From NCBI RefSeq assembly GCF_013167455.1, contig NZ_CP038328.1: 64,000 nucleotides of DNA; one strand, given 5' to 3'. Under the pieces are notes generated by a model, which made no database searches, was not told where the DNA came from, and saw only the letters and a program-made list of their open reading frames with translations. This document shows positions 28,467-60,753 of this stretch, one piece after another. Position 1 is the stretch's first letter, and every line of letters begins with the position of its first letter. The translations under genes and the position numbers were made by a program. Source of the stretch: Escherichia coli O157:H7 (GTDB lineage: Bacteria > Pseudomonadota > Gammaproteobacteria > Enterobacterales > Enterobacteriaceae).

Positions 28467-28467
28467 T

Positions 28468-29946: not shown

Positions 29947-29949
29947 GTT

Positions 29950-30110: not shown

Positions 30111-30125
30111 ATTTATGAGGAAAAA

Positions 30126-32623: not shown

Positions 32624-32633
32624 AGGAGAACGT

Positions 32634-34028
32634 ATGCCATTTAAAAAACTCTCCCGACGCACCTTCCTGACGGCAAGCTCGGCGCTTGCCTTCCTTCATA
32701 CCCCTTTCGCTCGCGCACTTCCCGCCCGACAAAGCGTTAATATCAACGACTACAACCCTCACGACTGGATCGCCTCATTTAAACAAGCCTTCAGCGAAGG
32801 GCAAACGGTTGTCGTGCCTGCTGGATTCGTTTGTGACAATATCAACACCGGCATCTTCATTCCTCCTGGCAAAACGTTACACATCCTTGGAAGCCTGCGC
32901 GGCAACGGCAGAGGGCGATTTGTCTTACAGGACGGCAGCCAGGTGACAGGGGAGGAGGGCGGCAGTATGCATAACATCACCCTGGATGTGCGTGGTTCTG
33001 ACTGCACCATCAAAGGGCTGGCGATGAGCGGCTTTGGTCCGGTAACGCAGATTTATATCGGCGGCAAAAACAAACGGGTCATGCGCAACCTGACCATCGA
33101 TAACCTGACCATTAGCCACGCTAATTACGCCATCTTACGCCAGGGATTTCATAACCAGATTATCGGTGCCAACATCACCAATTGTAAGTTCAGCGACTTA
33201 CAGGGCGATGCCATTGAATGGAACGTGGCGATTAACGACCGCGATATTTTGATCTCCGACCATGTCATCGAGCGCATCAACTGTACTAACGGCAAAATCA
33301 ACTGGGGCATTGGCATAGGCCTTGCGGGAAGCACTTACGATAATAATTACCCGGAAGATCAGGCAGTGAAAAACTTTGTCGTGGCGAATATCACGGGATC
33401 GGATTGTCGGCAGTTGATACATGTTGAAAATGGTAAACATTTTGTTATTCGTAATATCAAAGCCCGCAATATCACGCAGGATTTCAGTAAGAAAGCAGGT
33501 ATTGATAACGCCACAGTCGCTATTTACGGTTGTGACAATTTCGTGATTGATAATATTGAAATGATTAATAGCGCCGGGATGTTAATCGGCTATGGGGTAA
33601 TTAAAGGCAATTATCTCTCGATTCCGCAAAATTTCCGAGTGAATAATATTCAACTGGATAACACCCATCTTGCTTATAAATTGCGCGGCCTCCAAATCTC
33701 TGCCGGGAATGCCGTCTCCTTTGTGGCACTAACTAACATTGAGATGAAGCGTGCGTCGCTGGAGTTACACAACAAACCGCAACATCTTTTTCTGCGTAAT
33801 ATCAAAGTGATGCAGGAATCCTCTGTTGGACCCGCATTGATTATGAACTTCGACATGCGCAAAGACGTTCGAGGCGTCTTTATGGCGAAAGAAGAAACAC
33901 TGCTGTCTCTTGCAAATGTTCATGCGGTGAATGAGAAAGGACAAAGCTCCGTCGATATCGACAGGATTAATCACCATATTGTTAATGTGGAAAAGATTAA
34001 CTTTAGATTGCCGGAACGGAGAGAGTAG
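32634..34028 (+). CDS. wcaM: Colanic acid biosynthesis protein WcaM (secreted, right-handed beta-helix-like)
   Basis: 464 aa with Tat-like signal ([14 protein letters not shown]); last gene of the cluster. Confidence 0.85.
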
Positions 34029-34185
34029 ATTTGCGACCATTCATAAACTTACTGGATATAATGTTCTAAAAGATTATAATCCTCACACTAACTGTTAAAG
34101 CTGGGGCTGGGCAGCATTGACTACTCAGGGAAGGTACTCATCTTTATCTTGTGTTTCTTACGTAACAACCAGACTAAAGTGATTT

Positions 34186-35181
34186 ATGAACGATAACGTT
34201 TTGCTCATAGGAGCTTCCGGATTCGTAGGAACCCGACTACTTGAAACGGCAATTGCTGACTTTAATATCAAGAACCTGGACAAACAGCAGAGCCACTTTT
34301 ATCCAGAAATCACACAGATTGGTGATGTTCGTGATCAACAGGCACTCGACCAGGCGTTAGCCGGTTTTGACACTGTTGTACTACTGGCAGCGGAACACCG
34401 CGATGACGTCAGCCCTACTTCTCTCTATTATGATGTCAACGTTCAGGGTACCCGCAATGTGCTGGCGGCCATGGAAAAAAATGGCGTTAAAAATATCATC
34501 TTTACCAGTTCCGTTGCTGTTTATGGTTTGAACAAACACAACCCTGACGAAAACCATCCACACGACCCTTTCAACCACTACGGCAAAAGCAAGTGGCAGG
34601 CGGAGGAAGTGCTGCGTGAATGGTATAACAAAGCACCAACAGAACGTTCATTAACTATCATCCGTCCTACCGTTATCTTCGGTGAACGCAACCGCGGTAA
34701 CGTCTATAACTTGCTGAAACAGATCGCTGGCGGCAAGTTTATGATGGTGGGCGCAGGGACTAACTATAAGTCCATGGCTTATGTTGGAAACATTGTTGAG
34801 TTTATCAAGTACAAACTGAAGAATGTTGCCGCAGGTTACGAGGTTTATAACTACGTTGATAAGCCAGACCTGAACATGAACCAGTTGGTTGCTGAAGTTG
34901 AACAAAGCCTGAACAAAAAGATCCCTTCTATGCACTTGCCTTACCCACTAGGAATGCTGGGTGGATATTGCTTTGATATCCTGAGCAAAATTACGGGCAA
35001 AAAATACGCTGTCAGCTCTGTGCGCGTGAAAAAATTCTGCGCAACAACACAGTTTGACGCAACGAAAGTGCATTCTTCAGGTTTTGTGGCACCGTATACG
35101 CTGTCGCAAGGTCTGGATCGAACTCTGCAGTATGAATTCGTCCATGCCAAAAAAGACGACATAACGTTTGTTTCTGAGTAA
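34186..35181 (+). CDS. gne: NAD-dependent sugar 4-epimerase (short-chain dehydrogenase fold), Gne-like
   Basis: 331 aa; N-terminal Rossmann GASGFVG; catalytic YGKSK; sits between wcaM and galF where K-12 has no gene; lower GC than its neighbours. Confidence 0.75.
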   Translation: MNDNVLLIGASGFVGTRLLETAIADFNIKNLDKQQSHFYPEITQIGDVRDQQALDQALAGFDTVVLLAAEHRDDVSPTSLYYDVNVQGTRNVLAAMEKNGVKNIIFTSSVAVYGLNKHNPDENHPHDPFNHYGKSKWQAEEVLREWYNKAPTERSLTIIRPTVIFGERNRGNVYNLLKQIAGGKFMMVGAGTNYKSMAYVGNIVEFIKYKLKNVAAGYEVYNYVDKPDLNMNQLVAEVEQSLNKKIPSMHLPYPLGMLGGYCFDILSKITGKKYAVSSVRVKKFCATTQFDATKVHSSGFVAPYTLSQGLDRTLQYEFVHAKKDDITFVSE

Positions 35182-35423
35182 TGCAGACGAGTCAGAGAAA
35201 AAAGGACCAGGTTGGACTACGATTATTCGGAAAGAGGTACTGATTAAATTATCAGTATGTGGATTTCCGAGTAATCCGAGTAACCCAGATGCTGATGGTG
35301 TGTAGTGTTATCGTAAGGTTTAATCAAAGTTATGCGGAACTAAGCTTTGGTATATAGCCATAACGTTTGGCTAACCTATGGCAATAATTTACGCACTATC
35401 AGCCACTTAGAGGTAGGAAAAGA

Positions 35424-36317
35424 ATGACGAATTTAAAAGCAGTTATACCGGTAGCAGGTCTTGGGATGCATATGTTGCCTGCCACTAAGGCGATTCCCAA
35501 AGAGATGCTACCGATCGTCGACAAGCCAATGATTCAGTACATTGTTGACGAGATTGTGGCTGCAGGGATCAAAGAAATCCTCCTGGTAACTCACGCGTCC
35601 AAGAACGCAGTCGAAAACCACTTCGACACCTCTTATGAATTAGAATCTCTCCTTGAACAGCGCGTGAAGCGTCAACTACTGGCGGAAGTACAATCTATCT
35701 GTCCGCCGGGCGTGACCATTATGAACGTGCGTCAGGGTGAACCTTTAGGTTTAGGCCACTCCATTTTATGTGCGCGACCTGCCATTGGTGACAATCCATT
35801 TGTCGTGGTGCTGCCAGACGTTGTGATCGACGACGCCAGCGCCGACCCGCTACGCTACAACCTTGCTGCCATGATTGCGCGCTTCAATGAAACGGGACGC
35901 AGCCAGGTGCTGGCAAAACGTATGCCGGGCGACCTCTCTGAATACTCCGTCATCCAGACCAAAGAACCGCTGGATCGTGAAGGCAAAGTCAGCCGCATTG
36001 TTGAATTTATCGAAAAGCCGGATCAGCCGCAGACGCTGGACTCAGACATCATGGCCGTTGGTCGATATGTGCTTTCTGCCGATATTTGGCCGGAACTGGA
36101 ACGTACTCAGCCTGGTGCATGGGGACGTATTCAGCTGACTGATGCCATTGCTGAGCTGGCAAAAAAACAATCCGTTGATGCAATGCTGATGACTGGCGAC
36201 AGTTACGACTGCGGTAAAAAAATGGGCTATATGCAGGCGTTTGTGAAGTATGGACTACGCAACTTGAAAGAAGGGGCGAAGTTCCGCAAAGGTATCGAGA
36301 AGCTGTTAAGCGAATAA
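35424..36317 (+). CDS. galF: UTP-glucose-1-phosphate uridylyltransferase-like regulatory subunit GalF
   Basis: 297 aa [43 protein letters not shown]... Confidence 0.93.
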
Positions 36318-36543
36318 TGAAAATCTGACCGAATGTAACGGTTGATAAGGAAATAATATCGGCAGTGAAAAACTATAGATCAATAAATATCACTGCTGTT
36401 GAGCTTTTATAATTAACTATGCTACCAATGAATAAATCGTGTGCAGATATGTATTTTTTGTTTGGTAGTCTTGTTTCTCCCTCTGAATAATAAGATAATA
36501 AACGCTTGGAGATGATTTTTTTAACATGGATTATCATTTCGTA

Positions 36544-36577
36544 CACTGGTAGCGATTAAGCCAGGGGCGGTAGCGTG
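36544..36577 (+). promoter_or_regulatory. JUMPstart/ops element of the O-antigen operon
   Basis: CACTGGTAGCGATTAAGCCAGGGGCGGTAGCGTG; ops core GGCGGTAGCGTG at 36566-36577, about 60 bp upstream of the first O-antigen gene. Confidence 0.85.
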
Positions 36578-36635
36578 CATAAATTTTAATGCTTATCAAA
36601 ACTATTAGCATTAAAAATATATAAGAAATTCTCAA

Positions 36636-37418
36636 ATGAACAAAGAAACCGTTTCAATAATTATGCCCGTTTACAATGGGGCCAAAACTATAATCTCATC
36701 AGTAGAATCAATTATACATCAATCTTATCAAGATTTTGTTTTGTATATCATTGACGATTGTAGCACCGATGATACATTTTCATTAATCAACAGTCGATAC
36801 AAAAACAATCAGAAAATAAGAATATTGCGTAACAAGACAAATTTAGGTGTTGCAGAAAGTCGAAATTATGGAATAGAAATGGCCACGGGGAAATATATTT
36901 CTTTTTGTGATGCGGATGATTTGTGGCACGAGAAAAAATTAGAGCGTCAAATCGAAGTGTTAAATAATGAATGTGTAGATGTGGTATGTTCTAATTATTA
37001 TGTTATAGATAACAAAAGAAATATTGTTGGCGAAGTTAATGCTCCTCATGTGATAAATTATAGAAAAATGCTCATGAAAAACTACATAGGGAATTTGACA
37101 GGAATCTATAATGCCAACAAATTGGGTAAGTTTTATCAAAAAAAGATTGGTCACGAGGATTATTTGATGTGGCTGGAAATAATTAATAAAACAAATGGTG
37201 CTATTTGTATTCAAGATAATCTGGCGTATTACATGCGTTCAAATAATTCACTATCGGGTAATAAAATTAAAGCTGCAAAATGGACATGGAGTATATATAG
37301 AGAACATTTACATTTGTCCTTTCCAAAAACATTATATTATTTTTTATTATATGCTTCAAATGGAGTCATGAAAAAAATAACACATTCACTATTAAGGAGA
37401 AAGGAGACTAAAAAGTGA
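36636..37418 (+). CDS. wbdN: O-antigen glycosyltransferase (GT2)
   Basis: 260 aa; GT2 signature (VSIIMPVYNG, DDCSTD, DADD); AT-rich codon usage; first gene after galF in the O157-type order. Confidence 0.8.
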   Translation: MNKETVSIIMPVYNGAKTIISSVESIIHQSYQDFVLYIIDDCSTDDTFSLINSRYKNNQKIRILRNKTNLGVAESRNYGIEMATGKYISFCDADDLWHEKKLERQIEVLNNECVDVVCSNYYVIDNKRNIVGEVNAPHVINYRKMLMKNYIGNLTGIYNANKLGKFYQKKIGHEDYLMWLEIINKTNGAICIQDNLAYYMRSNNSLSGNKIKAAKWTWSIYREHLHLSFPKTLYYFLLYASNGVMKKITHSLLRRKETKK

Positions 37419-38599
37419 AGTCAGCGGCTAAGTTGATTTTTTTATTCCTATTTACACTTTATAGTCTCCAGTTGTATGGGGTTATCATAGATGATCGTAT
37501 AACAAATTTTGATACAAAGGTATTAACTAGTATTATAATTATATTTCAGATTTTTTTTGTTTTATTATTTTATCTAACGATTATAAATGAAAGAAAACAG
37601 CAGAAAAAATTTATCGTGAACTGGGAGCTAAAGTTAATACTCGTTTTCCTTTTTGTGACTATAGAAATTGCTGCTGTAGTTTTATTTCTTAAAGAAGGTA
37701 TTCCTATATTTGATGATGATCCAGGGGGGGCTAAACTTAGAATAGCTGAAGGTAATGGACTTTACATTAGATATATTAAGTATTTTGGTAATATAGTTGT
37801 GTTTGCATTAATTATTCTTTATGATGAGCATAAATTCAAACAGAGGACCATCATATTTGTATATTTTACAACGATTGCTTTATTTGGTTATCGTTCTGAA
37901 TTGGTGTTGCTCATTCTTCAATATATATTGATTACCAATATCCTGTCAAAGGATAACCGTAATCCTAAAATAAAAAGAATAATAGGGTATTTTTTATTGG
38001 TAGGGGTTGTATGCTCGTTGTTTTATCTAAGTTTAGGACAAGACGGAGAACAAAATGACTCATATAATAATATGTTAAGGATAATTAATAGGTTAACAAT
38101 AGAGCAAGTTGAAAGTGTTCCATATGTTGTTTCTGAATCTATTAAGAACGATTTCTTTCCGACACCAGAGTTAGAAAAGGAATTAAAAGCAATAATAAAT
38201 AGAATACAGGGAATAAAGCATCAAGACTTATTTTATGGAGAACGGTTACATAAACAAGTATTTGGAGACATGGGAGCAAATTTTTTATCAGTTACTACGT
38301 ATGGAGCAGAACTGTTAGTTTTTTTTGGTTTTCTCTGTGTATTCATTATCCCTTTAGGGATATATATACCTTTTTATCTTTTAAAGAGAATGAAAAAAAC
38401 CCATAGCTCGATAAATTGCGCATTCTATTCATATATCATTATGATTTTATTGCAATACTTAGTGGCTGGGAATGCATCGGCCTTCTTTTTTGGTCCTTTT
38501 CTCTCCGTATTGATAATGTGTACTCCTCTGATCTTATTGCATGATACGTTAAAGAGATTATCACGAAATGAAAATATCAGTTATAACTGTGACTTATAA
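37415..38599 (+). CDS. wzy: O-antigen polymerase Wzy
   Basis: 394 aa, very hydrophobic polytopic protein, AT-rich, GTG start overlapping wbdN. Confidence 0.75.
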   Translation: MKSAAKLIFLFLFTLYSLQLYGVIIDDRITNFDTKVLTSIIIIFQIFFVLLFYLTIINERKQQKKFIVNWELKLILVFLFVTIEIAAVVLFLKEGIPIFDDDPGGAKLRIAEGNGLYIRYIKYFGNIVVFALIILYDEHKFKQRTIIFVYFTTIALFGYRSELVLLILQYILITNILSKDNRNPKIKRIIGYFLLVGVVCSLFYLSLGQDGEQNDSYNNMLRIINRLTIEQVESVPYVVSESIKNDFFPTPELEKELKAIINRIQGIKHQDLFYGERLHKQVFGDMGANFLSVTTYGAELLVFFGFLCVFIIPLGIYIPFYLLKRMKKTHSSINCAFYSYIIMILLQYLVAGNASAFFFGPFLSVLIMCTPLILLHDTLKRLSRNENISYNCDL

Positions 38600-39314
38600 T
38601 AATGCTGAAGGGTTAGAAAAAACTTTAAGTAGTTTATCAATTTTAAAAATAAAACCTTTTGAGATTATTATAGTTGATGGCGGCTCTACAGATGGAACGA
38701 ATCGTGTCATTAGTAGATTTACTAGTATGAATATTACACATGTTTATGAAAAAGATGAAGGGATATATGATGCGATGAATAAGGGCCGAATGTTGGCCAA
38801 AGGCGACTTAATACATTATTTAAACGCCGGCGATAGCGTAATTGGAGATATATATAAAAATATCAAAGAGCCATGTTTGATTAAAGTTGGCCTTTTCGAA
38901 AATGATAAACTTCTGGGATTTTCTTCTATAACCCATTCAAATACAGGGTATTGTCATCAAGGGGTGATTTTCCCAAAGAATCATTCAGAATATGATCTAA
39001 GGTATAAAATATGTGCTGATTATAAGCTTATTCAAGAGGTGTTTCCTGAAGGGTTAAGATCTCTATCTTTGATTACTTCGGGTTATGTAAAATATGATAT
39101 GGGGGGAGTATCTTCAAAAAAAAGAATTTTAAGAGATAAAGAGCTTGCCAAAATTATGTTTGAAAAAAATAAAAAAAACCTTATTAAGTTTATTCCAATT
39201 TCAATAATCAAAATTTTATTCCCTGAACGTTTAAGAAGAGTATTGCGGAAAATGCAATATATTTGTCTAACTTTATTCTTCATGAAGAATAGTTCACCAT
39301 ATGATAATGAATAA
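38568..39314 (+). CDS. wbdO: O-antigen glycosyltransferase (GT2)
   Basis: 248 aa MKISVITVTYNNAEGLEKTL...IIVDGGSTDGT; GT2 motifs. Confidence 0.78.
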   Translation: MKISVITVTYNNAEGLEKTLSSLSILKIKPFEIIIVDGGSTDGTNRVISRFTSMNITHVYEKDEGIYDAMNKGRMLAKGDLIHYLNAGDSVIGDIYKNIKEPCLIKVGLFENDKLLGFSSITHSNTGYCHQGVIFPKNHSEYDLRYKICADYKLIQEVFPEGLRSLSLITSGYVKYDMGGVSSKKRILRDKELAKIMFEKNKKNLIKFIPISIIKILFPERLRRVLRKMQYICLTLFFMKNSSPYDNE

Positions 39315-40692
39315 AATCAAAAAAATACTTAAATTTTGCACTTTAAAAAAATATGATACATCAAGTGCTTTAGGTAGAGAACAGGAAAGGTACAGGATTA
39401 TATCCTTGTCTGTTATTTCAAGTTTGATTAGTAAAATACTCTCACTACTTTCTCTTATATTAACTGTAAGTTTAACTTTACCTTATTTAGGACAAGAGAG
39501 ATTTGGTGTATGGATGACTATTACCAGTCTTGGTGCTGCTCTGACATTTTTGGACTTAGGTATAGGAAATGCATTAACAAACAGGATCGCACATTCATTT
39601 GCGTGTGGCAAAAATTTAAAGATGAGTCGGCAAATTAGTGGTGGGCTCACTTTGCTGGCTGGATTATCGTTTGTCATAACTGCAATATGCTATATTACTT
39701 CTGGCATGATTGATTGGCAACTAGTAATAAAAGGTATAAACGAGAATGTGTATGCAGAGTTACAACACTCAATTAAAGTCTTTGTAATCATATTTGGACT
39801 TGGAATTTATTCAAATGGTGTGCAAAAAGTTTATATGGGAATACAAAAAGCCTATATAAGTAATATTGTTAATGCCATATTTATATTGTTATCTATTATT
39901 ACTCTAGTAATATCGTCGAAACTACATGCGGGACTACCAGTTTTAATTGTCAGCACTCTTGGTATTCAATACATATCGGGAATCTATTTAACAATTAATC
40001 TTATTATAAAGCGATTAATAAAGTTTACAAAAGTTAACATACATGCTAAAAGAGAAGCTCCATATTTGATATTAAACGGTTTTTTCTTTTTTATTTTACA
40101 GTTAGGCACTCTGGCAACATGGAGTGGTGATAACTTTATAATATCTATAACATTGGGTGTTACTTATGTTGCTGTTTTTAGCATTACACAGAGATTATTT
40201 CAAATATCTACGGTCCCTCTTACGATTTATAACATCCCGTTATGGGCTGCTTATGCAGATGCTCATGCACGCAATGATACTCAATTTATAAAAAAGACGC
40301 TCAGAACATCATTGAAAATAGTGGGTATTTCATCATTCTTATTGGCCTTCATATTAGTAGTGTTCGGTAGTGAAGTCGTTAATATTTGGACAGAAGGAAA
40401 GATTCAGGTACCTCGAACATTCATAATAGCTTATGCTTTATGGTCTGTTATTGATGCTTTTTCGAATACATTTGCAAGCTTTTTAAATGGTTTGAACATA
40501 GTTAAACAACAAATGCTTGCTGTTGTAACATTGATATTGATCGCAATTCCAGCAAAATACATCATAGTTAGCCATTTTGGGTTAACTGTTATGTTGTACT
40601 GCTTCATTTTTATATATATTGTAAATTACTTTATATGGTATAAATGTAGTTTTAAAAAACATATCGATAGACAGTTAAATATAAGAGGATGA
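39301..40692 (+). CDS. wzx: O-antigen flippase Wzx
   Basis: 463 aa polytopic membrane protein; position. Confidence 0.78.
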   Translation: MIMNKIKKILKFCTLKKYDTSSALGREQERYRIISLSVISSLISKILSLLSLILTVSLTLPYLGQERFGVWMTITSLGAALTFLDLGIGNALTNRIAHSFACGKNLKMSRQISGGLTLLAGLSFVITAICYITSGMIDWQLVIKGINENVYAELQHSIKVFVIIFGLGIYSNGVQKVYMGIQKAYISNIVNAIFILLSIITLVISSKLHAGLPVLIVSTLGIQYISGIYLTINLIIKRLIKFTKVNIHAKREAPYLILNGFFFFILQLGTLATWSGDNFIISITLGVTYVAVFSITQRLFQISTVPLTIYNIPLWAAYADAHARNDTQFIKKTLRTSLKIVGISSFLLAFILVVFGSEVVNIWTEGKIQVPRTFIIAYALWSVIDAFSNTFASFLNGLNIVKQQMLAVVTLILIAIPAKYIIVSHFGLTVMLYCFIFIYIVNYFIWYKCSFKKHIDRQLNIRG

Positions 40693-40694
40693 AA

Positions 40695-41789
40695 ATGAAA
40701 TATATACCAGTTTACCAACCGTCATTGACAGGAAAAGAAAAAGAATATGTAAATGAATGTCTGGACTCAACGTGGATTTCATCAAAAGGAAACTATATTC
40801 AGAAGTTTGAAAATAAATTTGCGGAACAAAACCATGTGCAATATGCAACTACTGTAAGTAATGGAACGGTTGCTCTTCATTTAGCTTTGTTAGCGTTAGG
40901 TATATCGGAAGGAGATGAAGTTATTGTTCCAACACTGACATATATAGCATCAGTTAATGCTATAAAATACACAGGAGCCACCCCCATTTTCGTTGATTCA
41001 GATAATGAAACTTGGCAAATGTCTGTTAGTGACATAGAACAAAAAATCACTAATAAAACTAAAGCTATTATGTGTGTCCATTTATACGGACATCCATGTG
41101 ATATGGAACAAATTGTAGAACTGGCCAAAAGTAGAAATTTGTTTGTAATTGAAGATTGCGCTGAAGCCTTTGGTTCTAAATATAAAGGTAAATATGTGGG
41201 AACATTTGGAGATATTTCTACTTTTAGCTTTTTTGGAAATAAAACTATTACTACAGGTGAAGGTGGAATGGTTGTCACGAATGACAAAACACTTTATGAC
41301 CGTTGTTTACATTTTAAAGGCCAAGGATTAGCTGTACATAGGCAATATTGGCATGACGTTATAGGCTACAATTATAGGATGACAAATATCTGCGCTGCTA
41401 TAGGATTAGCCCAGTTAGAACAAGCTGATGATTTTATATCACGAAAACGTGAAATTGCTGATATTTATAAAAAAAATATCAACAGTCTTGTACAAGTCCA
41501 CAAGGAAAGTAAAGATGTTTTTCACACTTATTGGATGGTCTCAATTCTAACTAGGACCGCAGAGGAAAGAGAGGAATTAAGGAATCACCTTGCAGATAAA
41601 CTCATCGAAACAAGGCCAGTTTTTTACCCTGTCCACACGATGCCAATGTACTCGGAAAAATATCAAAAGCACCCTATAGCTGAGGATCTTGGTTGGCGTG
41701 GAATTAATTTACCTAGTTTCCCCAGCCTATCGAATGAGCAAGTTATTTATATTTGTGAATCTATTAACGAATTTTATAGTGATAAATAG
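40695..41789 (+). CDS. per: GDP-perosamine synthase (PLP-dependent DegT/DnrJ/EryC1-family aminotransferase)
   Basis: MKYIPVYQPSLTGKEKEYVNECLDSTWISSKGNYIQKFEN...; aminotransferase fold; the classical O157 rfbE marker position. Confidence 0.88.
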   Translation: MKYIPVYQPSLTGKEKEYVNECLDSTWISSKGNYIQKFENKFAEQNHVQYATTVSNGTVALHLALLALGISEGDEVIVPTLTYIASVNAIKYTGATPIFVDSDNETWQMSVSDIEQKITNKTKAIMCVHLYGHPCDMEQIVELAKSRNLFVIEDCAEAFGSKYKGKYVGTFGDISTFSFFGNKTITTGEGGMVVTNDKTLYDRCLHFKGQGLAVHRQYWHDVIGYNYRMTNICAAIGLAQLEQADDFISRKREIADIYKKNINSLVQVHKESKDVFHTYWMVSILTRTAEEREELRNHLADKLIETRPVFYPVHTMPMYSEKYQKHPIAEDLGWRGINLPSFPSLSNEQVIYICESINEFYSDK

Positions 41790-41813
41790 CCTAAAATATT
41801 GTAAAGGTCATTC

Positions 41814-43028
41814 ATGAAAATTGCGTTGAATTCAGATGGATTTTACGAGTGGGGCGGTGGAATTGATTTTATTAAATATATTCTGTCAATATTAGAAACG
41901 AAACCAGAAATATGTATCGATATTCTTTTACCGAGAAATGATATACATTCTCTTATAAGAGAAAAAGCATTTCCTTTTAAAAGTATATTAAAAGCAATTT
42001 TAAAGAGGGAAAGGCCTCGATGGATTTCATTAAATAGATTTAATGAGCAATACTATAGAGATGCCTTTACACAAAATAATATAGAGACGAATCTTACCTT
42101 TATTAAAAGTAAGAGCTCTGCCTTTTATTCATATTTTGATAGTAGCGATTGTGATGTTATTCTTCCTTGCATGCGTGTTCCTTCGGGAAATTTGAATAAA
42201 AAAGCATGGATTGGTTATATTTATGACTTTCAACACTGTTACTATCCTTCATTTTTTAGTAAGCGAGAAATAGATCAAAGGAATGTGTTTTTTAAATTGA
42301 TGCTCAATTGCGCTAACAATATTATTGTTAATGCACATTCAGTTATTACCGATGCAAATAAATATGTTGGGAATTATTCTGCAAAACTACATTCTCTTCC
42401 ATTTAGTCCATGCCCTCAATTAAAATGGTTCGCTGATTACTCTGGTAATATTGCCAAATATAATATTGACAAGGATTATTTTATAATTTGCAATCAATTT
42501 TGGAAACATAAAGATCATGCAACTGCTTTTAGGGCATTTAAAATTTATACTGAATATAATCCTGATGTTTATTTAGTATGCACGGGAGCTACTCAAGATT
42601 ATCGATTCCCTGGATATTTTAATGAATTGATGGTTTTGGCAAAAAAGCTCGGAATTGAATCGAAAATTAAGATATTAGGGCATATACCTAAACTTGAACA
42701 AATTGAATTAATCAAAAATTGCATTGCTGTAATACAACCAACCTTATTTGAAGGCGGGCCTGGAGGGGGGGTAACATTTGACGCTATTGCATTAGGGAAA
42801 AAAGTTATACTATCTGACATAGATGTCAATAAAGAAGTTAATTGCGGTGATGTATATTTCTTTCAGGCAAAAAACCATTATTCATTAAATGACGCGATGG
42901 TAAAAGCTGATGAATCTAAAATTTTTTATGAACCTACAACTCTGATAGAATTGGGTCTCAAAAGACGCAATGCGTGTGCAGATTTTCTTTTAGATGTTGT
43001 GAAACAAGAAATTGAATCCCGATCTTAA
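41814..43028 (+). CDS. wbdP: O-antigen glycosyltransferase (GT4)
   Basis: 404 aa; GT4-like C-terminal domain; position. Confidence 0.75.
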
Positions 43029-43047
43029 TATATTCAAGAGGTATATA

Positions 43048-44166
43048 ATGACTAAAGTCGCTCTTATTACAGGTGTAACTGGACAAGATGGATCTTATCT
43101 AGCTGAGTTTTTGCTTGATAAAGGGTATGAAGTTCATGGTATCAAACGCCGAGCCTCATCTTTTAATACAGAACGCATAGACCATATTTATCAAGATCCA
43201 CATGGTTCTAACCCAAATTTTCACTTGCACTATGGAGATCTGACTGATTCATCTAACCTCACTAGAATTCTAAAGGAGGTACAGCCAGATGAAGTATATA
43301 ATTTAGCTGCTATGAGTCACGTAGCAGTTTCTTTTGAGTCTCCAGAATATACAGCCGATGTCGATGCAATTGGTACATTACGTTTACTGGAAGCAATTCG
43401 CTTTTTAGGATTGGAAAACAAAACGCGTTTCTATCAAGCTTCAACCTCAGAATTATATGGACTTGTTCAGGAAATCCCTCAAAAAGAATCCACCCCTTTT
43501 TATCCTCGTTCCCCTTATGCAGTTGCAAAACTTTACGCATATTGGATCACGGTAAATTATCGAGAGTCATATGGTATTTATGCATGTAATGGTATATTGT
43601 TCAATCATGAATCTCCACGCCGTGGAGAAACGTTTGTAACAAGGAAAATTACTCGAGGACTTGCAAATATTGCACAAGGCTTGGAATCATGTTTGTATTT
43701 AGGGAATATGGATTCGTTACGAGATTGGGGACATGCAAAAGATTATGTTAGAATGCAATGGTTGATGTTACAACAGGAGCAACCCGAAGATTTTGTGATT
43801 GCAACAGGAGTCCAATACTCAGTCCGTCAGTTTGTCGAAATGGCAGCAGCACAACTTGGTATTAAGATGAGCTTTGTTGGTAAAGGAATCGAAGAAAAAG
43901 GCATTGTAGATTCGGTTGAAGGACAGGATGCTCCAGGTGTGAAACCAGGTGATGTCATTGTTGCTGTTGATCCTCGTTATTTCCGACCAGCTGAAGTTGA
44001 TACTTTGCTTGGAGATCCGAGCAAAGCTAATCTCAAACTTGGTTGGAGACCAGAAATTACTCTTGCTGAAATGATTTCTGAAATGGTTGCCAAAGATCTT
44101 GAAGCCGCTAAAAAACATTCTCTTTTAAAATCGCATGGTTTTTCTGTAAGCTTAGCTCTGGAATGA
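43048..44166 (+). CDS. gmd: GDP-mannose 4,6-dehydratase (O-antigen copy)
   Basis: [50 protein letters not shown]...; protein highly similar to the colanic acid Gmd, but the DNA is AT-rich and diverged. Confidence 0.93.
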
Positions 44167-45134
44167 TGATGAATAAGCAACGTATTTTTATTGCTGGTCA
44201 CCAAGGAATGGTTGGATCAGCTATTACCCGACGCCTCAAACAACGTGATGATGTTGAGTTGGTTTTACGTACTCGGGATGAATTGAACTTGTTGGATAGT
44301 AGCGCTGTTTTGGATTTTTTTTCTTCACAGAAAATCGACCAGGTTTATTTGGCAGCAGCAAAAGTCGGAGGTATTTTAGCTAACAGTTCTTATCCTGCCG
44401 ATTTTATATATGAGAATATAATGATAGAGGCGAATGTCATTCATGCTGCCCACAAAAATAATGTAAATAAACTGCTTTTCCTCGGTTCGTCGTGTATTTA
44501 TCCTAAGTTAGCACACCAACCGATTATGGAAGACGAATTATTACAAGGGAAACTTGAGCCAACAAATGAACCTTATGCTATCGCAAAAATTGCAGGTATT
44601 AAATTATGTGAATCTTATAACCGTCAGTTTGGGCGTGATTACCGTTCAGTAATGCCAACCAATCTTTATGGTCCAAATGACAATTTTCATCCAAGTAATT
44701 CTCATGTGATTCCGGCGCTTTTGCGCCGCTTTCATGATGCTGTGGAAAACAATTCTCCGAATGTTGTTGTTTGGGGAAGTGGTACTCCAAAGCGTGAATT
44801 CTTACATGTAGATGATATGGCTTCTGCAAGCATTTATGTCATGGAGATGCCATACGATATATGGCAAAAAAATACTAAAGTAATGTTGTCTCATATCAAT
44901 ATTGGAACAGGTATTGACTGCACGATTTGTGAGCTTGCGGAAACAATAGCAAAAGTTGTAGGTTATAAAGGGCATATTACGTTCGATACAACAAAGCCCG
45001 ATGGAGCCCCTCGAAAACTACTTGATGTAACGCTTCTTCATCAACTAGGTTGGAATCATAAAATTACCCTTCACAAGGGTCTTGAAAATACATACAACTG
45101 GTTTCTTGAAAACCAACTTCAATATCGGGGGTAA
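44163..45134 (+). CDS. fcl: GDP-L-fucose synthase-like reductase (O-antigen copy)
   Basis: 323 aa [46 protein letters not shown]... Confidence 0.9.
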
Positions 45135-45136
45135 TA

Positions 45137-45646
45137 ATGTTTTTACATTCCCAAGACTTTGCCACAATTGTAAGGTCTACTCCTCTTATTTCTATAGATT
45201 TGATTGTGGAAAACGAGTTTGGCGAAATTTTGCTAGGAAAACGAATCAACCGCCCGGCACAGGGCTATTGGTTCGTTCCTGGTGGTAGGGTGTTGAAAGA
45301 TGAAAAATTGCAGACAGCCTTTGAACGATTGACAGAAATTGAACTAGGAATTCGTTTGCCTCTCTCTGTGGGTAAGTTTTATGGTATCTGGCAGCACTTC
45401 TACGAAGACAATAGTATGGGGGGAGACTTTTCAACGCATTATATAGTTATAGCATTCCTTCTTAAATTACAACCAAACATTTTGAAATTACCGAAGTCAC
45501 AACATAATGCTTATTGCTGGCTATCGCGAGCAAAGCTGATAAATGATGACGATGTGCATTATAATTGTCGCGCATATTTTAACAATAAAACAAATGATGC
45601 GATTGGCTTAGATAATAAGGATATAATATGTCTGATGCGCCAATAA
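45137..45646 (+). CDS. wbdQ: GDP-mannose mannosyl hydrolase (Nudix; O-antigen copy)
   Basis: 169 aa [50 protein letters not shown]... Confidence 0.88.
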
Positions 45647-47076
45647 TTGCTGTAGTTATGGCCGGTGGTACAGGCAGTCGTCTTTGGCCACTTTCTCGTG
45701 AACTATATCCAAAGCAGTTTTTACAACTCTCTGGTGATAACACCTTGTTACAAACGACTTTGCTACGACTTTCAGGCCTATCATGTCAAAAACCATTAGT
45801 GATAACAAATGAACAGCATCGCTTTGTTGTGGCTGAACAGTTAAGGGAAATAAATAAATTAAATGGTAATATTATTCTAGAACCATGCGGGCGAAATACT
45901 GCACCAGCAATAGCGATATCTGCGTTTCATGCGTTAAAACGTAATCCTCAGGAAGATCCATTGCTTCTAGTTCTTGCGGCAGACCACGTTATAGCTAAAG
46001 AAAGTGTTTTCTGTGATGCTATTAAAAATGCAACTCCCATCGCTAATCAAGGTAAAATTGTAACGTTTGGAATTATACCAGAATATGCTGAAACTGGTTA
46101 TGGGTATATTGAGAGAGGTGAACTATCTGTACCGCTTCAAGGGCATGAAAATACTGGTTTTTATTATGTAAATAAGTTTGTCGAAAAGCCTAATCGTGAA
46201 ACCGCAGAATTGTATATGACTTCTGGTAATCACTATTGGAATAGTGGAATATTCATGTTTAAGGCATCTGTTTATCTTGAGGAATTGAGAAAATTTAGAC
46301 CTGACATTTACAATGTTTGTGAACAGGTTGCCTCATCCTCATACATTGATCTAGATTTTATTCGATTATCAAAAGAACAATTTCAAGATTGTCCTGCTGA
46401 ATCTATTGATTTTGCTGTAATGGAAAAAACAGAAAAATGTGTTGTATGCCCTGTTGATATTGGTTGGAGTGACGTTGGATCTTGGCAATCGTTATGGGAC
46501 ATTAGTCTAAAATCGAAAACAGGAGATGTATGTAAAGGTGATATATTAACCTATGATACTAAGAATAATTATATCTACTCTGAGTCAGCGTTGGTAGCCG
46601 CCATTGGAATTGAAGATATGGTTATCGTGCAAACTAAAGATGCCGTTCTTGTGTCTAAAAAGAGTGATGTACAGCATGTAAAAAAAATAGTCGAAATGCT
46701 TAAATTGCAGCAACGTACAGAGTATATTAGTCATCGTGAAGTTTTCCGACCATGGGGAAAATTTGATTCGATTGACCAAGGTGAGCGATACAAAGTCAAG
46801 AAAATTATTGTGAAACCTGGTGAGGGGCTTTCTTTAAGGATGCATCACCATCGTTCTGAACATTGGATCGTGCTTTCTGGTACAGCAAAAGTAACCCTTG
46901 GCGATAAAACTAAACTAGTCACCGCAAATGAATCGATATACATTCCCCTTGGCGCAGCGTATAGTCTTGAGAATCCGGGCATAATCCCTCTTAATCTTAT
47001 TGAAGTCAGTTCAGGGGATTATTTGGGAGAGGATGATATTATAAGACAGAAAGAACGTTACAAACATGAAGATTAA
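45628..47076 (+). CDS. manC: Mannose-1-phosphate guanylyltransferase (O-antigen copy)
   Basis: 482 aa [24 protein letters not shown]...; AT-rich DNA unlike cpsB. Confidence 0.92.
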
Positions 47077-47079
47077 CAT

Positions 47080-48450
47080 ATGAAATCTTTAACCTGCTTT
47101 AAAGCCTATGATATTCGCGGGAAATTAGGCGAAGAACTGAATGAAGATATTGCCTGGCGCATTGGGCGTGCCTATGGCGAATTTCTCAAACCGAAAACCA
47201 TTGTTTTAGGCGGTGATGTCCGCCTCACCAGCGAAGCGTTAAAACTGGCGCTTGCGAAAGGTTTACAGGATGCGGGCGTCGATGTGCTGGATATCGGTAT
47301 GTCCGGCACCGAAGAGATCTATTTCGCCACGTTCCATCTCGGAGTGGATGGCGGCATCGAAGTTACCGCCAGCCATAACCCGATGGATTACAACGGCATG
47401 AAGCTGGTGCGCGAAGGGGCTCGCCCGATCAGCGGTGATACCGGACTGCGCGATGTCCAGCGTCTGGCAGAAGCCAATGACTTCCCTCCTGTCGATGAAA
47501 CCAAACGTGGTCGCTATCAGCAAATCAATCTGCGTGACGCTTACGTTGATCACCTGTTCGGTTATATCAACGTCAAAAACCTCACGCCGCTCAAGCTGGT
47601 GATCAACTCCGGGAACGGCGCAGCGGGTCCGGTGGTGGACGCCATTGAAGCCCGATTTAAAGCCCTCGGCGCACCGGTGGAATTAATCAAAGTACACAAC
47701 ACGCCGGACGGCAATTTCCCCAACGGTATTCCTAACCCGCTGCTGCCGGAATGCCGCGACGACACCCGTAATGCGGTCATCAAACACGGCGCGGATATGG
47801 GCATTGCCTTTGATGGCGATTTTGACCGCTGTTTCCTGTTTGACGAAAAAGGGCAGTTTATCGAGGGCTACTACATTGTCGGCCTGCTGGCAGAAGCGTT
47901 CCTCGAAAAAAATCCCGGCGCGAAGATCATCCACGATCCACGTCTCTCCTGGAACACCGTTGATGTGGTGACTGCCGCAGGCGGCACCCCGGTAATGTCG
48001 AAAACCGGACACGCCTTTATTAAAGAACGTATGCGCAAGGAAGACGCCATCTACGGTGGCGAAATGAGCGCTCACCATTACTTCCGTGATTTCGCTTACT
48101 GCGACAGCGGCATGATCCCGTGGCTGCTGGTCGCCGAACTGGTGTGCCTGAAAGGAAAAACGCTGGGCGAAATGGTGCGCGACCGGATGGCGGCGTTTCC
48201 GGCAAGCGGTGAGATCAACAGCAAACTGGCGCAACCCGTTGAGGCAATTAATCGCGTGGAACAGCATTTTAGCCGCGAGGCGCTGGCGGTGGATCGCACC
48301 GATGGCATCAGCATGACCTTTGCCGACTGGCGCTTTAACCTGCGCTCCTCCAACACCGAACCGGTGGTGCGGTTGAATGTGGAATCACGCGGTGATGTAA
48401 AGCTAATGGAAAAGAAAACTAAAGCTCTTCTTAAATTGCTAAGTGAGTGA
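47080..48450 (+). CDS. manB: Phosphomannomutase (O-antigen copy; near-identical to cpsG at DNA level except the extreme 5' and 3' ends)
   Basis: 456 aa [29 protein letters not shown]...; high-GC body matching cpsG; the last ~20 codons are AT-rich and divergent (...[19 protein letters not shown]). Confidence 0.93.
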
Positions 48451-48689
48451 TTATTTACATTAATCATTAAGCGTATTTAAGATTATATTAAAGTAATGTT
48501 ATTGCGGTATATGATGAATATGTGGGCTTTTTTATGTATAACGACTATACCGCAACTTTATCTAGGAAAAGATTAATAGAAATAAAGTTTTGTACTGACC
48601 AATTTGCATTTCACGTCACGATTGAGACGTTCCTTTGCTTAAGACATTTTTTCATCGCTTATGTAATAACAAATGTGCCTTATATAAAA

Positions 48690-49650
48690 AGGAGAACAAA
48701 ATGGAACTTAAAATAATTGAGACAATAGATTTTTATTATCCCTGTTTACGATATTATAGCCAAAGTTGTATCCTGCATCAGTCCTGCAATATTTCACGAG
48801 TGCTTTGTTAACTGAATACATGTCTGCCATTTTCCAGATGATAACGACGTCATCGCAATTGATGGTAAAACACTTCGGCACACTTATGACAAGAGTCGTC
48901 GCAGAGGAGTGGTTCATGTCATTAGTGCGTTTCAGCAATGCACAGTCTGGTCCTCGGATAGATCAAGACGGATGAGAAACCTAATGCGTTCACAGTTATT
49001 CATGAACTTTCTAAAATGATGGGTATTAAAGGAAAAATAATCATAACTGATGCGATGGCTTGCCAGAAAGATATTGCAGAGAAGATATAAAAACAGAGAT
49101 GTGATTATTTATTCGCTGTAAAAGGAAATAAGAGTCGGCTTAATAGAGTCTTTGAGGAGATATTTACGCTGAAAGAATTAAATAATCCAAAACATGACAG
49201 TTACGCAATTAGTGAAAAGAGGCACGGCAGAGACGATGTCCGTCTTCATATTGTTTGAGATGCTCCTGATGAGCTTATTGATTTCACGTTTGAATGGAAA
49301 GGGCTGCAGAATTTATGAATGGCAGTCCACTTTCTCTCAATAATAGCAGAGCAAAAGAAAGAATCCGAAATGACGATCAAATATTATATTAGATCTGCTG
49401 CTTTAACCGCAGAGAAGTTCGCCACAGTAAATCGAAATCACTGGCGCATGGAGAATAAGTTGCACAGTAGCCTGATGTGGTAATGAATGAAATCGACTAT
49501 AATATAAGAAGGCGAGTTGCATTCGAATGATTTTCTAGAATGCGGCACATCGCTATTAATATCTGACAATGATAATGTATTCAAGGCAGGATTATCATGT
49601 AAGATGCGAAAAGCAGTCATGGACAGAAACTTCCTAGCGTCAGGCATTGC
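48690..49650 (+). mobile_element. Degenerate H-repeat (ISAs1-family) transposase remnant
   Basis: Frame-hopping translation gives MELK..., [155 protein letters not shown]-repeat-protein blocks interrupted by multiple stops and frameshifts. Confidence 0.8.
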
Positions 49651-49712
49651 AGCGTGCGGGCTTTCATAATCTTGCATTGGTTTTGATAAGATATTTCTTT
49701 GGAGATGGGAAA

Positions 49713-50378
49713 ATGAATTTGTATGGTATTTTTGGTGCTGGAAGTTATGGTAGAGAAACAATACCCATTCTAAATCAACAAATAAAGCAAGAATGTGGTT
49801 CTGACTATGCTCTGGTTTTTGTGGATGATGTTTTGGCAGGAAAGAAAGTTAATGGTTTTGAAGTGCTTTCAACCAACTGCTTTCTAAAAGCCCCTTATTT
49901 AAAAAAGTATTTTAATGTTGCTATTGCTAATGATAAGATACGACAGAGAGTGTCTGAGTCAATATTATTACACGGGGTTGAACCAATAACTATAAAACAT
50001 CCAAATAGCGTTGTTTATGATCATACTATGATAGGTAGTGGCGCTATTATTTCTCCCTTTGTTACAATATCTACTAATACTCATATAGGGAGGTTTTTTC
50101 ATGCAAACATATACTCATACGTTGCACATGATTGTCAAATAGGAGACTATGTTACATTTGCTCCTGGGGCTAAATGTAATGGATATGTTGTTATTGAAGA
50201 CAATGCATATATAGGCTCGGGTGCAGTAATTAAGCAGGGTGTTCCTAATCGCCCACTTATTATTGGCGCGGGAGCCATTATAGGTATGGGGGCTGTTGTC
50301 ACTAAAAGTGTTCCTGCCGGTATAACTGTGTGCGGAAATCCAGCAAGAGAAATGAAAAGATCGCCAACATCTATTTAA
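49713..50378 (+). CDS. wbdR: Hexapeptide-repeat acetyltransferase, probable GDP-perosamine N-acetyltransferase
   Basis: MNLYGIFGAGSYGRETIPIL...; C-terminal left-handed beta-helix repeats; last gene before gnd as in the O157 cluster. Confidence 0.8.
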   Translation: MNLYGIFGAGSYGRETIPILNQQIKQECGSDYALVFVDDVLAGKKVNGFEVLSTNCFLKAPYLKKYFNVAIANDKIRQRVSESILLHGVEPITIKHPNSVVYDHTMIGSGAIISPFVTISTNTHIGRFFHANIYSYVAHDCQIGDYVTFAPGAKCNGYVVIEDNAYIGSGAVIKQGVPNRPLIIGAGAIIGMGAVVTKSVPAGITVCGNPAREMKRSPTSI

Positions 50379-50578
50379 TGGGAATGCGAAAACACGTTCC
50401 AAATGGGACTAATGTTTAAAATATATATAATTTCGCTAATTTACTAAATTATGGCTTCTTTTTAAGCTATCCTTTACTTAGTTATTACTGATACAGCATG
50501 AAATTTATAATACTCTGATACATTTTTATACGTTATTCAAGCCGCATATCTAGCGGTAACCCCTGACAGGAGTAAACA

Positions 50579-51985
50579 ATGTCAAAGCAACAGATCGGCG
50601 TAGTCGGTATGGCAGTGATGGGGCGCAACCTTGCGCTCAACATCGAAAGCCGTGGTTATACCGTCTCTATTTTCAACCGTTCCCGTGAAAAGACGGAAGA
50701 AGTGATTGCCGAAAATCCAGGCAAGAAACTGGTTCCTTACTATACGGTGAAAGAATTTGTTGAATCTCTGGAAACGCCTCGTCGCATCTTGTTAATGGTG
50801 AAAGCAGGTGCAGGCACGGATGCTGCTATTGATTCCCTTAAGCCATACCTCGATAAAGGTGACATCATCATTGATGGTGGTAATACCTTCTTCCAGGACA
50901 CCATTCGTCGTAACCGTGAGCTTTCTGCAGAAGGCTTTAACTTCATCGGTACCGGTGTTTCCGGTGGTGAGGAGGGCGCACTAAAAGGTCCTTCCATTAT
51001 GCCTGGTGGGCAGAAAGAAGCCTATGAACTAGTTGCGCCGATCCTGACCAAAATCGCCGCAGTGGCTGAAGACGGTGAGCCATGCGTTACCTATATTGGT
51101 GCCGATGGCGCAGGTCACTATGTGAAGATGGTTCACAACGGTATTGAATACGGCGATATGCAGCTGATTGCTGAAGCCTATTCTCTGCTTAAAGGTGGTC
51201 TGAACCTCACCAACGAAGAACTGGCGCAGATCTTTACCGAGTGGAATAACGGTGAACTGAGCAGCTACCTGATCGACATTACCAAAGACATCTTCACTAA
51301 AAAAGATGAAGACGGTAACTACCTGGTTGATGTGATCCTGGATGAAGCGGCAAACAAAGGTACGGGCAAATGGACCAGCCAGAGCGCACTGGATCTCGGC
51401 GAACCGCTGTCGCTGATTACCGAGTCTGTGTTTGCACGATACATCTCTTCTCTGAAAGATCAGCGCGTTGCTGCGTCTAAAGTTCTCTCTGGCCCACAAG
51501 CGCAGCCAGCTGGCGACAAGGCTGAGTTCATCGAAAAAGTTCGCCGTGCACTGTATCTGGGCAAAATCGTTTCTTACGCTCAGGGGTTCTCTCAACTGCG
51601 TGCGGCGTCTGAAGAGTACAACTGGGATCTGAACTACGGCGAAATCGCGAAGATTTTCCGTGCTGGCTGCATCATCCGTGCGCAGTTCCTGCAGAAAATC
51701 ACCGATGCTTATGCCGAAAATCCGCAGATCGCTAACCTGCTGCTGGCTCCTTACTTCAAGCAAATTGCCGATGACTACCAGCAGGCGCTGCGCGATGTCG
51801 TCGCTTATGCGGTACAGAACGGTATCCCGGTTCCGACCTTCGCCGCTGCGGTTGCCTATTATGACAGCTACCGCGCCGCTGTTCTGCCTGCGAACCTGAT
51901 CCAGGCACAGCGTGACTATTTCGGTGCGCATACTTATAAGCGCATTGATAAAGAAGGTGTGTTCCATACCGAATGGCTGGATTAA
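50579..51985 (+). CDS. gnd: 6-phosphogluconate dehydrogenase, decarboxylating
   Basis: 468 aa [30 protein letters not shown]... Confidence 0.95.
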
Positions 51986-52011
51986 TCTGATTTAATCAAC
52001 AATAAAATTGA

Positions 52012-52043
52012 GGCCCGGCGTATATTGTACCGGGCTTTTTTTT
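52012..52043 (+). terminator. Rho-independent terminator after gnd
   Basis: GCCCGGCG-tatattgta-CCGGGC stem-loop followed by TTTTTTTT. Confidence 0.75.
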
Positions 52044-52224
52044 GCCAATTATCTTATAGACTAAATATCACTGCTTAATATTAACTTAATAAATATCAGC
52101 TATTCTTATAAAGAAAATCTGAATTGTTTTTCGCTGCGTTGACCATCGAACAACGTAGCGTTAAAACTTTTAGCTCTTATCAGGATGTTAAAAACATCAT
52201 GATTCACAGTTAAGTTAATTCTGA

Positions 52225-53400
<1,176 letters not shown>

Positions 53401-53542
53401 CATCTTGTTATCAGGGCTATTTACGCCCTGATTGTCTTTTGTTACCTCCGCAATAATTCATTATTTTTATCACTTATCCTATAGCATTCACAGGGATTAT
53501 CGCTAAACTATGCGGACTTGGAAATTTCCGTCAGTTAGGGTA

Positions 53543-54523: not shown

Positions 54524-54545
54524 TCTTTTCGGTTTTAAAGAAAAA

Positions 54546-54578
54546 GGGCAGGGTGGTGACACCTTGCCCGTTTTTTTT
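54546..54578. terminator. Bidirectional rho-independent terminator between convergent wzzB and hisI
   Basis: 10-bp stem GGGCAGGGTG/CACCTTGCCC with GTGA loop, flanked by an A-rich tract upstream and TTTTTTTT downstream; a second palindrome (GGATGCGA...TCGCATCC) follows at about 54582-54605. Confidence 0.7.
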
Positions 54579-54619
54579 GCCGGATGCGACAACAATATCG
54601 CATCCGCTTACCCCGCAAC

Positions 54620-55224: not shown

Positions 55225-55231
<7 letters not shown>
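54620..55231 (-). CDS. hisI: Bifunctional phosphoribosyl-AMP cyclohydrolase / phosphoribosyl-ATP pyrophosphatase
   Basis: 203 aa [42 protein letters not shown]... Confidence 0.95.
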
Positions 55232-57309
<2,078 letters not shown>

Positions 57310-57310
<1 letters not shown>

Positions 57311-58377: not shown

Positions 58378-60748
<2,371 letters not shown>

Positions 60749-60753
60749 GGCGA

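Follow-up and report, generated by a model that had tools for sequence, protein, structure and literature searches.

The O157 O-antigen operon between galF and gnd of an Escherichia coli O157:H7 chromosome: a mosaic gene cluster within a longer replaced segment

The O157:H7 rfb gene cluster of Escherichia coli is said to have been described originally by Wang and Reeves in 1998, and its relationship to a Salmonella cluster was reportedly noted by Samuel et al. in 2004. The locus is among the best studied in E. coli. The EDL933/Sakai-type cluster has been described in two further accounts (PMC3158064, PMC7685785), the first of which lists its 12 genes, and its characteristic sugar, D-Rha4NAc (N-acetyl-perosamine, PerNAc), is found in no E. 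coli O antigen other than that of O157 (PMC7685785). Here an AT-rich interval, positions 36541-50578 of a 64-kb stretch of E. coli O157:H7 DNA (the window, meaning the whole stretch of 64,000 nt that was analysed), was compared with this cluster, with colinear loci of Salmonella enterica and with the corresponding region of E. coli O55:H7. With a probability of about 0.97, the interval is the Wzx/Wzy-dependent O157 O-antigen operon of an O157:H7-clone chromosome and is therefore a known locus.

A Megablast comparison with 5426 complete E. coli genomes found all 14,038 nt of the interval to be 100% identical in many O157:H7 chromosomes, among them EDL933, SS17, SS52, FRIK944 and 86-24 derivatives. 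At least 80% of the cluster is held by 305 of the 5426 genomes, in every case at an identity of at least 99%. Relative to the EDL933/Sakai-type cluster, with its 12 genes and H-repeat (H-rpt) remnant, no difference lies inside the interval, and a single-nucleotide polymorphism (SNP) a little upstream of it, at 36438, sets the window apart from EDL933; across the whole window only two other positions differ from EDL933 (23794 and 57291). The 25-kb left flank was found at 99% identity or above in 307 records, about as many as carry the cluster. Since flank and cluster counts are alike and only three SNPs separate the window from EDL933, the background is the O157:H7 clone and not just any O157 strain.

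On the identical EDL933 stretch, RefSeq gives the names 'O157 family O-antigen polymerase', 'O157 family O-antigen flippase', 'GDP-perosamine synthase RfbE/PerA' and 'GDP-perosamine N-acetyltransferase'. The order annotated there is a family 2 glycosyltransferase (GT2), wzy, a glycosyltransferase, wzx, rfbE, a family 4 glycosyltransferase (GT4), gmd, fcl, GDP-mannose mannosyl hydrolase, manC and phosphomannomutase, followed by an ISAs1 pseudogene, perB and then gndA, ugd and wzzB. In the window all 12 genes and the H-rpt were found between galF and gnd in the order wbdN-wzy-wbdO-wzx-per-wbdP-gmd-fcl-wbdQ-manC-manB-(H-rpt)-wbdR. A first-pass annotation, made from the sequence alone, had proposed this O157 gene content and order, and the open reading frames (ORFs), the family searches and the EDL933 annotation all agree with it. 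A BLASTN search with per (40695-41789) and in-silico serotyping, which it had proposed as a check, came out as O157 (100% identity to O157:H7, RfbE annotation), and wzx, wzy and per were found to fit no other serogroup better than O157. Its description of the locus as known serotype biology defining the strain background likewise holds, the near-identical flanks fixing the O157:H7 lineage. The evidence gathered holds nothing that contradicts the O157 cluster identification.

E. coli has two O157 cluster types (PMC3158064) and a colinear Salmonella cluster exists, so that an O157-like variant making a different or cross-reacting antigen (a PV01-185-type non-H7 O157, Salmonella O30-type or Citrobacter-type cluster) had to be weighed. 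Its probability is negligible: it is refuted by the 100% identity to O157:H7 references and the mere three SNPs against EDL933 in 64 kb, whereas the Salmonella version is only 72% identical at the nucleotide level and carries its wbdR downstream of gnd.

Coordinates of the features in and around the galF-gnd interval, as positions in the window. GC blocks are those given by segmentation.
Feature	Position	Strand	Match, composition or content
gnu (gne, Z3206), Und-PP-GlcNAc 4-epimerase	34186-35181	+	Pfam Epimerase PF01370, E = 8.5e-31
galF, conserved left flank	35424-36317	+	NTP_transferase; GC 50.7%
GC block 1	36313-42752		31.2% GC; wbdN to wbdP
JUMPstart	36540-36577	+	Rfam RF01707, 39.9 bits vs gathering score 35
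ops octamer GGCGGTAG	36566-36573	+	exact match inside JUMPstart
wbdN, GT2	36636-37418	+	Pfam Glycos_transf_2, E = 3.2e-35
wzy, O157 O-antigen polymerase	37415-38599	+	TIGR04370, 44.7 bits vs cut-off 40
wbdO, GT2	38568-39314	+	Pfam Glycos_transf_2, E = 9.1e-15
wzx, O157 O-unit flippase	39301-40692	+	Pfam MatE, 32.1 bits vs 24.9
rfbE/per, GDP-perosamine synthase, PLP aminotransferase	40695-41789	+	Pfam DegT_DnrJ_EryC1, E = 3.9e-128
wbdP, GT4	41814-43028	+	Pfam Glycos_transf_1, E = 6.4e-13; annotated family 4 glycosyltransferase
GC block 2	42753-47115		38.1% GC; gmd to manC
gmd	43048-44166	+	TIGR01472, 587.7 bits vs cut-off 415
fcl, GDP-L-fucose synthase	44169-45134	+	NF047922, 539 bits vs cut-off 500
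gmm/wbdQ, Nudix GDP-mannose mannosyl hydrolase	45137-45646	+	NF011963, 277 bits vs cut-off 146
manC, mannose-1-phosphate guanylyltransferase / mannose-6-phosphate isomerase	45628-47076	+	TIGR01479, 779 bits vs cut-off 373
manB, phosphomannomutase	47080-48450	+	54% GC; conversion tract 47074-48411
GC block 3	47116-48394		55.9% GC; manB
GC block 4	48395-50540		35.6% GC; H-repeat remnant and wbdR
H-repeat (ISAs1/ISEc1-family) remnant	48564-49675	+	~83% nt identity to ISEc1 copies across E. coli
wbdR/perB, GDP-perosamine N-acetyltransferase, left-handed beta-helix	49713-50378	+	Pfam Hexapep, E = 6.2e-20; PglD_N
gnd, conserved right flank, co-transferred with cluster	50579-51985	+	Pfam 6PGD
wzzB, O-chain length regulator	53546-54523	+	Pfam Wzz, 67.9 bits; RefSeq annotation

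The gene content is that of a Wzx/Wzy pathway, with wzx and wzy both present and Wzz nearby; family searches of the cluster proteins found three glycosyltransferases and no ABC-transporter family (wzm/wzt). WbdN has the motif DADD at residues 92-95, an instance of the DxDD motif described for beta-1,3-Glc/Gal GT2 enzymes including WbdN itself (PMC4202792), and WbdN is a beta-1,3-glucosyltransferase acting on N-acetylgalactosamine (GalNAc) linked to undecaprenyl diphosphate (Und-PP), an assignment credited to Gao et al. 2012 (via PMC7685785). Although it lies outside 36541-50578, gnu is functionally part of the O157 system, supplying the initiating GalNAc; where the O unit begins with GalNAc, the gene directly precedes galF (PMC7685785), and its identical copy in EDL933 is annotated as N-acetyl-alpha-D-glucosaminyl-diphospho-ditrans,octacis-undecaprenol 4-epimerase. 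The downstream gene wzzB, also outside the interval, belongs to the O-antigen pathway. WecA and WaaL are encoded elsewhere, outside the 64-kb window. In the proposed assembly WecA would make Und-PP-linked N-acetylglucosamine (Und-PP-GlcNAc), which Gnu would epimerise to Und-PP-GalNAc; WbdN would then add beta-1,3-glucose, WbdO alpha-1,4-L-fucose (L-Fuc) and WbdP alpha-1,3-PerNAc. Wzx would flip the completed O unit and Wzy polymerise it, with WzzB setting the chain length and WaaL ligating the product to the core.

The gene set for GDP-perosamine and GDP-PerNAc is complete at the level of families, with Gmd, a DegT aminotransferase of the perosamine-synthase type and an N-acetyltransferase, whose activities are predicted. 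Assignments of gmd, fcl, gmm and manC were made at equivalog level, ManB has a Pfam match, and the activities of Per and PerB were taken from the literature. The best solved relative of Per is 3bn1, a chain deposited as 'Perosamine synthetase' (E = 2.5e-102), and solved relatives of WbdR are 4m9c (E = 4e-73) and chains deposited as 'Perosamine N-acetyltransferase' (4ea7, E = 1e-16); a GGAG lies 8 nt upstream of the wbdR ATG. According to the predicted pathway, ManB and ManC would make GDP-mannose, Gmm/WbdQ would trim the GDP-mannose pool, and Gmd would convert GDP-mannose to GDP-4-keto-6-deoxymannose. Two branches would leave this intermediate, one in which Fcl yields GDP-L-fucose and one in which Per (RfbE) yields GDP-perosamine, to be N-acetylated by WbdR/PerB. 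The two branches had been proposed in the first-pass annotation, from GDP-mannose through GDP-perosamine to GDP-PerNAc and to GDP-fucose, and they fit the enzyme families and solved relatives.

The start of the island, 36541, is the first base of the JUMPstart and the exact onset of homology to the Salmonella O30-type cluster and other relatives. Together with its ops octamer, the JUMPstart would be the RfaH loading site for operon-long transcription. Transcription would start in the galF-wbdN spacer, and RfaH, recruited at 36540-36577, would carry it through the 14-kb AT-rich operon. The SNP at 36438 lies in the same spacer, ~100 nt ahead of the JUMPstart, at a place where one would expect the operon promoter. 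A second, stronger JUMPstart (11075-11113, plus strand; RF01707, 57.3 bits), with ops at 11102, is located upstream of wza, which heads the colanic-acid cluster.

Several caveats attach to this account of the operon. The wzx product scores 26 against a cut-off of 300 in NCBIfam WZX_like, and its identity is drawn from the annotation, Pfam MatE and orthology instead of from a curated equivalog; the protein has ~10 hydrophobic segments, and its Salmonella orthologue is 70% identical and matches Polysacc_synt. WbdR resembles PglD/WeeI-like acetyltransferases much more closely than it does the PerB whose structure has been solved, and its substrate is for that reason taken from annotation and known biochemistry. 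WbdO is probably an inverting alpha-1,4-L-fucosyltransferase that uses GDP-beta-L-Fuc, and WbdP probably a retaining alpha-1,3-N-acetylperosaminyltransferase; both specificities follow from the CAZy rule that GT2 enzymes invert and GT4 enzymes retain, combined with the structure of the O unit, and a literature search found no biochemical characterisation of either WbdO or WbdP. A sigma-70 promoter consensus scan of 35400-52300 gave 65 sites where 57.9 were expected, and since such a scan is uninformative in AT-rich DNA no promoter was located; in the same region 13 terminator-like sites were found, with 11.3 expected. The distal genes would depend on RfaH for their expression. As to production of the O157 antigen, all cluster ORFs are intact, so that nothing in the sequence points to a rough phenotype.

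The interval differs sharply in composition from its surroundings. Its GC content is 36.4%, against 51.5% in the rest of the window, and 500-nt windows averaged 0.365 within the interval (n = 27) and 0.516 beyond it (n = 99; Mann-Whitney p = 1.7e-12). GC at third codon positions (GC3) is 0.22-0.36 in the island genes and 0.54 in galF and gnd. The limits of the island were checked by unsupervised likelihood segmentation of GC, blind to genes, which placed breakpoints at 36312, 5 bases ahead of the galF stop (36317), and at 50540, 39 nt ahead of the gnd ATG (50579), so that the limits 36541-50578 were objectively recovered. An abrupt switch to AT-rich DNA between galF and gnd, as first claimed from the sequence alone, is thus confirmed by windowed GC, GC3 and segmentation alike, and the windowed profile, which had been suggested as a check for the absence of a compositional break, showed a discontinuity. 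The description 'AT-rich island' stands for the overall GC content but conceals a mosaic, since segmentation divided the island into four blocks and manB is native to E. coli in composition and 96% identical to cpsG. Shoulders of ~45% GC flank the island (33335-36312 and 50541-54095); the strongest GC breakpoints of the window, at 33334 and 54095, bound this broader ~45% GC zone, which takes in the 3' end of wcaM, gnu, ugd and wzz.

It is very unlikely that the shift in composition arose by chance or is purely functional, for example through membrane-protein codon bias, and is hence silent on foreign origin. Such an account could draw on the AT-richness that wzx and wzy show in almost every O-antigen cluster, and on the low GC of the shoulders (33.3-36.3 kb and 50.5-54.1 kb) beyond the cluster. 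However, the soluble-enzyme genes per, gmd, fcl, manC and wbdR also have GC3 values of 0.22-0.30, their colanic-acid paralogues elsewhere in the window do not share the low GC3, being of normal GC and no more than 66-71% identical to the island copies, and manB, the sole converted gene, jumps to a GC3 of 0.62.

Iguchi et al. (2011, PMC3158064), who cite Samuel et al., published the replacement of manB by cpsG, and the window agrees with this. The segment 47074-48411 has 96.0% nucleotide identity with the colanic-acid gene cpsG at 25640-26978 of the same window. Up to the final 71 nt of manB, 1-7 positions differ in every 100 nt; in those 71 nt the number rises to 20 and GC is 36.6%, compared with 56% in cpsG; because this tail diverges, the conversion tract is taken to end ~40-50 nt short of the manB stop, with the original AT-rich 3' end kept. 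The same manB matches cpsG at 95-99% identity in 4228 E. coli genomes. Of the 305 genomes with the O157 cluster, ten have no manB match that reaches 99% identity. The colanic acid (wca/cps) cluster of the window holds paralogous gmd, fcl, gmm, cpsB (manC) and cpsG (manB) and a JUMPstart of its own, and unlike the island it has normal GC. The island gmd-fcl is 71% and manC 66% identical to these paralogues at the nucleotide level, so that manB alone is near-identical to its colanic counterpart, as a result of gene conversion. Directly upstream of cpsG (25647-27017) lies an Rfam 'algC RNA' motif (RF02929; 25593-25642, plus strand; 78.2 bits against a gathering score of 33.8); since homology between the two genes starts at 25640/47074, manB is without this motif.

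Relatives of the cluster outside E. coli are few. When Wzy was searched against 5.8 billion proteins, its relatives beyond the E. coli O157 cluster were only Salmonella enterica Wzy and metagenome (Logan) proteins. The Salmonella Wzy, named for the O30 serovars Soerenga and Urbana, is ~60% identical over its full length and 59-66% identical overall, 66% being reached by partial sequences. The Logan proteins are 55-60% identical, and two at 55% represent a divergent third version. One Logan locus (L008 302-3394, from SRR33902327) carries a divergent third wbdN-wzy-wbdO-wzx at 65.6% nucleotide identity, with Wzy at 55% amino acid identity, and its homology begins at the JUMPstart position.

Two Salmonella loci (L007 and L009) are colinear with 36541-48386 of the window at 72% nucleotide identity. 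This O30-type cluster has the same order of gnu, galF, JUMPstart, GT2, wzy, GT2, wzx, per, GT4, gmd, fcl, gmm, manC and manB, all 12 orthologues are present at 60-91% amino acid identity, and manB is colanic-type in both species (61% GC in Salmonella). Unlike in O157, the wbdR homologue (72% amino acid identity) lies downstream of gnd (L009 14645-15975, GCA_017139395.1), followed on the opposite strand by a DDE-transposase remnant (15493-15975; PF01609, E = 1.2e-7). Salmonella gmd-fcl-gmm is also of colanic type, at 55-60% GC and 83% identity to the colanic genes of E. coli, whereas the O157 copies have stayed low in GC. On the simplest reading of these alignments, an old low-GC cluster would have been common to E. 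coli and Salmonella, resident colanic-acid paralogues would have replaced one part of it in the one host and another part in the other, and events associated with insertion sequences (IS) would have repositioned wbdR.

The H-repeat remnant next to wbdR was defined by DNA and tblastn comparison with intact ISEc1. It falls into two pieces, 48564-48749, which matches ISEc1 positions 401-591 at 72%, and 48737-49675, which matches 744-1686 at 85%; both element ends are kept, and an internal stretch of ~152 nt has been lost (positions 592-743 of ISEc1 in locus L006). Matches to the transposase begin only at residue 68 and are in two frames, RefSeq places here an ISAs1 pseudogene that is frameshifted and contains an internal stop, and a Pfam search of the broken ORF fragments gave a single sub-threshold DDE_Tnp_1 match (E = 0.017). 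Given the internal deletion, the frameshift and the stops, the element is a dead remnant and not a functional ISAs1 member. Matches of at least 99% identity occur in 307 records, and every genome carrying the O157 cluster has kept the remnant at that level. In the Salmonella gnd-ugd interval the H-repeat was looked for and not found, and the transposase remnant there is a different DDE element. Since the Salmonella wbdR sits after gnd beside this other remnant, it can be speculated, though it is rather doubtful, that the H-repeat marks the event that moved wbdR into the operon and that it supplies sequence for wbdR expression, as a read-through spacer or an internal promoter. If true, this role would make PerNAc acetylation regulatable separately from the rest of the O unit.

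The DNA that differs from O55:H7 extends well beyond the island. Against strain CB9615, identity is 98.3% over 1-25453, ~96% over 25577-36289, 82% in gnd and 96.5% over 52037-61987, which corresponds to 1-7% divergence per kb in the flanks and 18% in gnd; the differences end at 62670, and no base differs over 63001-64000. Genome-wide, the divergence is 0.06% once recombinant segments are set aside, and a published 131-kb recombination takes in the his operon (PMC2806823). Because the divergence from CB9615 is far beyond this background, the whole window up to ~62.7 kb is assigned to the replaced segment, in agreement with the published 131-kb event (PMC2806823). The island had initially been regarded as the horizontally acquired part of the window; it is acquired, but this understated the extent, as the flanks from position 1 to ~62.7 kb have been replaced as well. 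The right-hand junction of the O157 recombinant segment appears to lie within the window, near yeeZ. From 62198 onwards the divergence from CB9615 drops from ~2-4% to six SNPs, the last of them at 62670, and then to zero. CB9615 has a yefM-yoeB toxin-antitoxin pair between yeeZ and hisL, where the window has only ~210 nt (61988-62197) without these genes. The his operon itself is on the minus strand from ~61.6 kb down to ~54.6 kb, with its leader (RF00514, 131.6 bits) at 61700-61823 on that strand.

A classical integrative island was considered for the AT-rich stretch and rejected: there is no tRNA gene in the 64-kb window, the annotation shows neither an integrase nor a recombinase between galF and gnd, and direct repeats flanking the island boundaries were looked for and not found. 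Since the flanks are divergent as well, homologous replacement rather than island integration is indicated. It is highly improbable that the stretch is a mobile genomic island, brought in by integrase or phage, and not an allele exchanged at a fixed polymorphic locus, for although the abrupt GC drop and the IS remnant inside it would suit a mobile element, the stretch occupies the universal galF-gnd position, lacks the hallmarks just listed, and is accompanied by divergence from O55:H7 that runs tens of kb into conserved flanks, as homologous replacement predicts (PMC2806823).

The O55:H7 cluster of CB9615, the allele displaced by that of O157, occupies the same galF-gnd locus, with an identical Gnu, shared gmd, gmm, manC and manB, and an ISAs1 remnant nearby. 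It differs in its wzx, wzy and glycosyltransferases and in having aminotransferase and Fcl-family genes beyond gnd, which presumably make colitose in place of perosamine and fucose. A patch around gnu and galF (34001-36000) is only 0.6-0.8% diverged from CB9615, with no difference in the Gnu protein (WP_000999466.1); the adjacent wcaK-wcaM is 3-7.6% diverged, making this a conserved patch inside the recombinant segment. Further upstream, dgcE (yegE, diguanylate cyclase; 1479-4797, minus strand) is annotated as a frameshifted pseudogene in EDL933, to which the window is identical there, and is intact in CB9615.

Taken together, a history can be proposed in which the low-GC cluster would be an old one common with the Salmonella O30-type, its manB was overwritten in E. 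coli by the resident cpsG, and wbdR stands beside the scar of the H-repeat; the locus and more than 60 kb of flanks entered the O55:H7 ancestor by homologous recombination. What is gained here is a correct annotation of the window and a warning that the recombinant segment far exceeds the AT-rich block. The cluster, which is the target of the standard rfbE, wzx and wzy diagnostic PCRs, fixes the serogroup as O157 and, with its flanks, the clone as the O157:H7 lineage. The picture of the locus as a textbook case of antigenic shift, through large homologous replacement and gene conversion between paralogous sugar-pathway genes, is unchanged.

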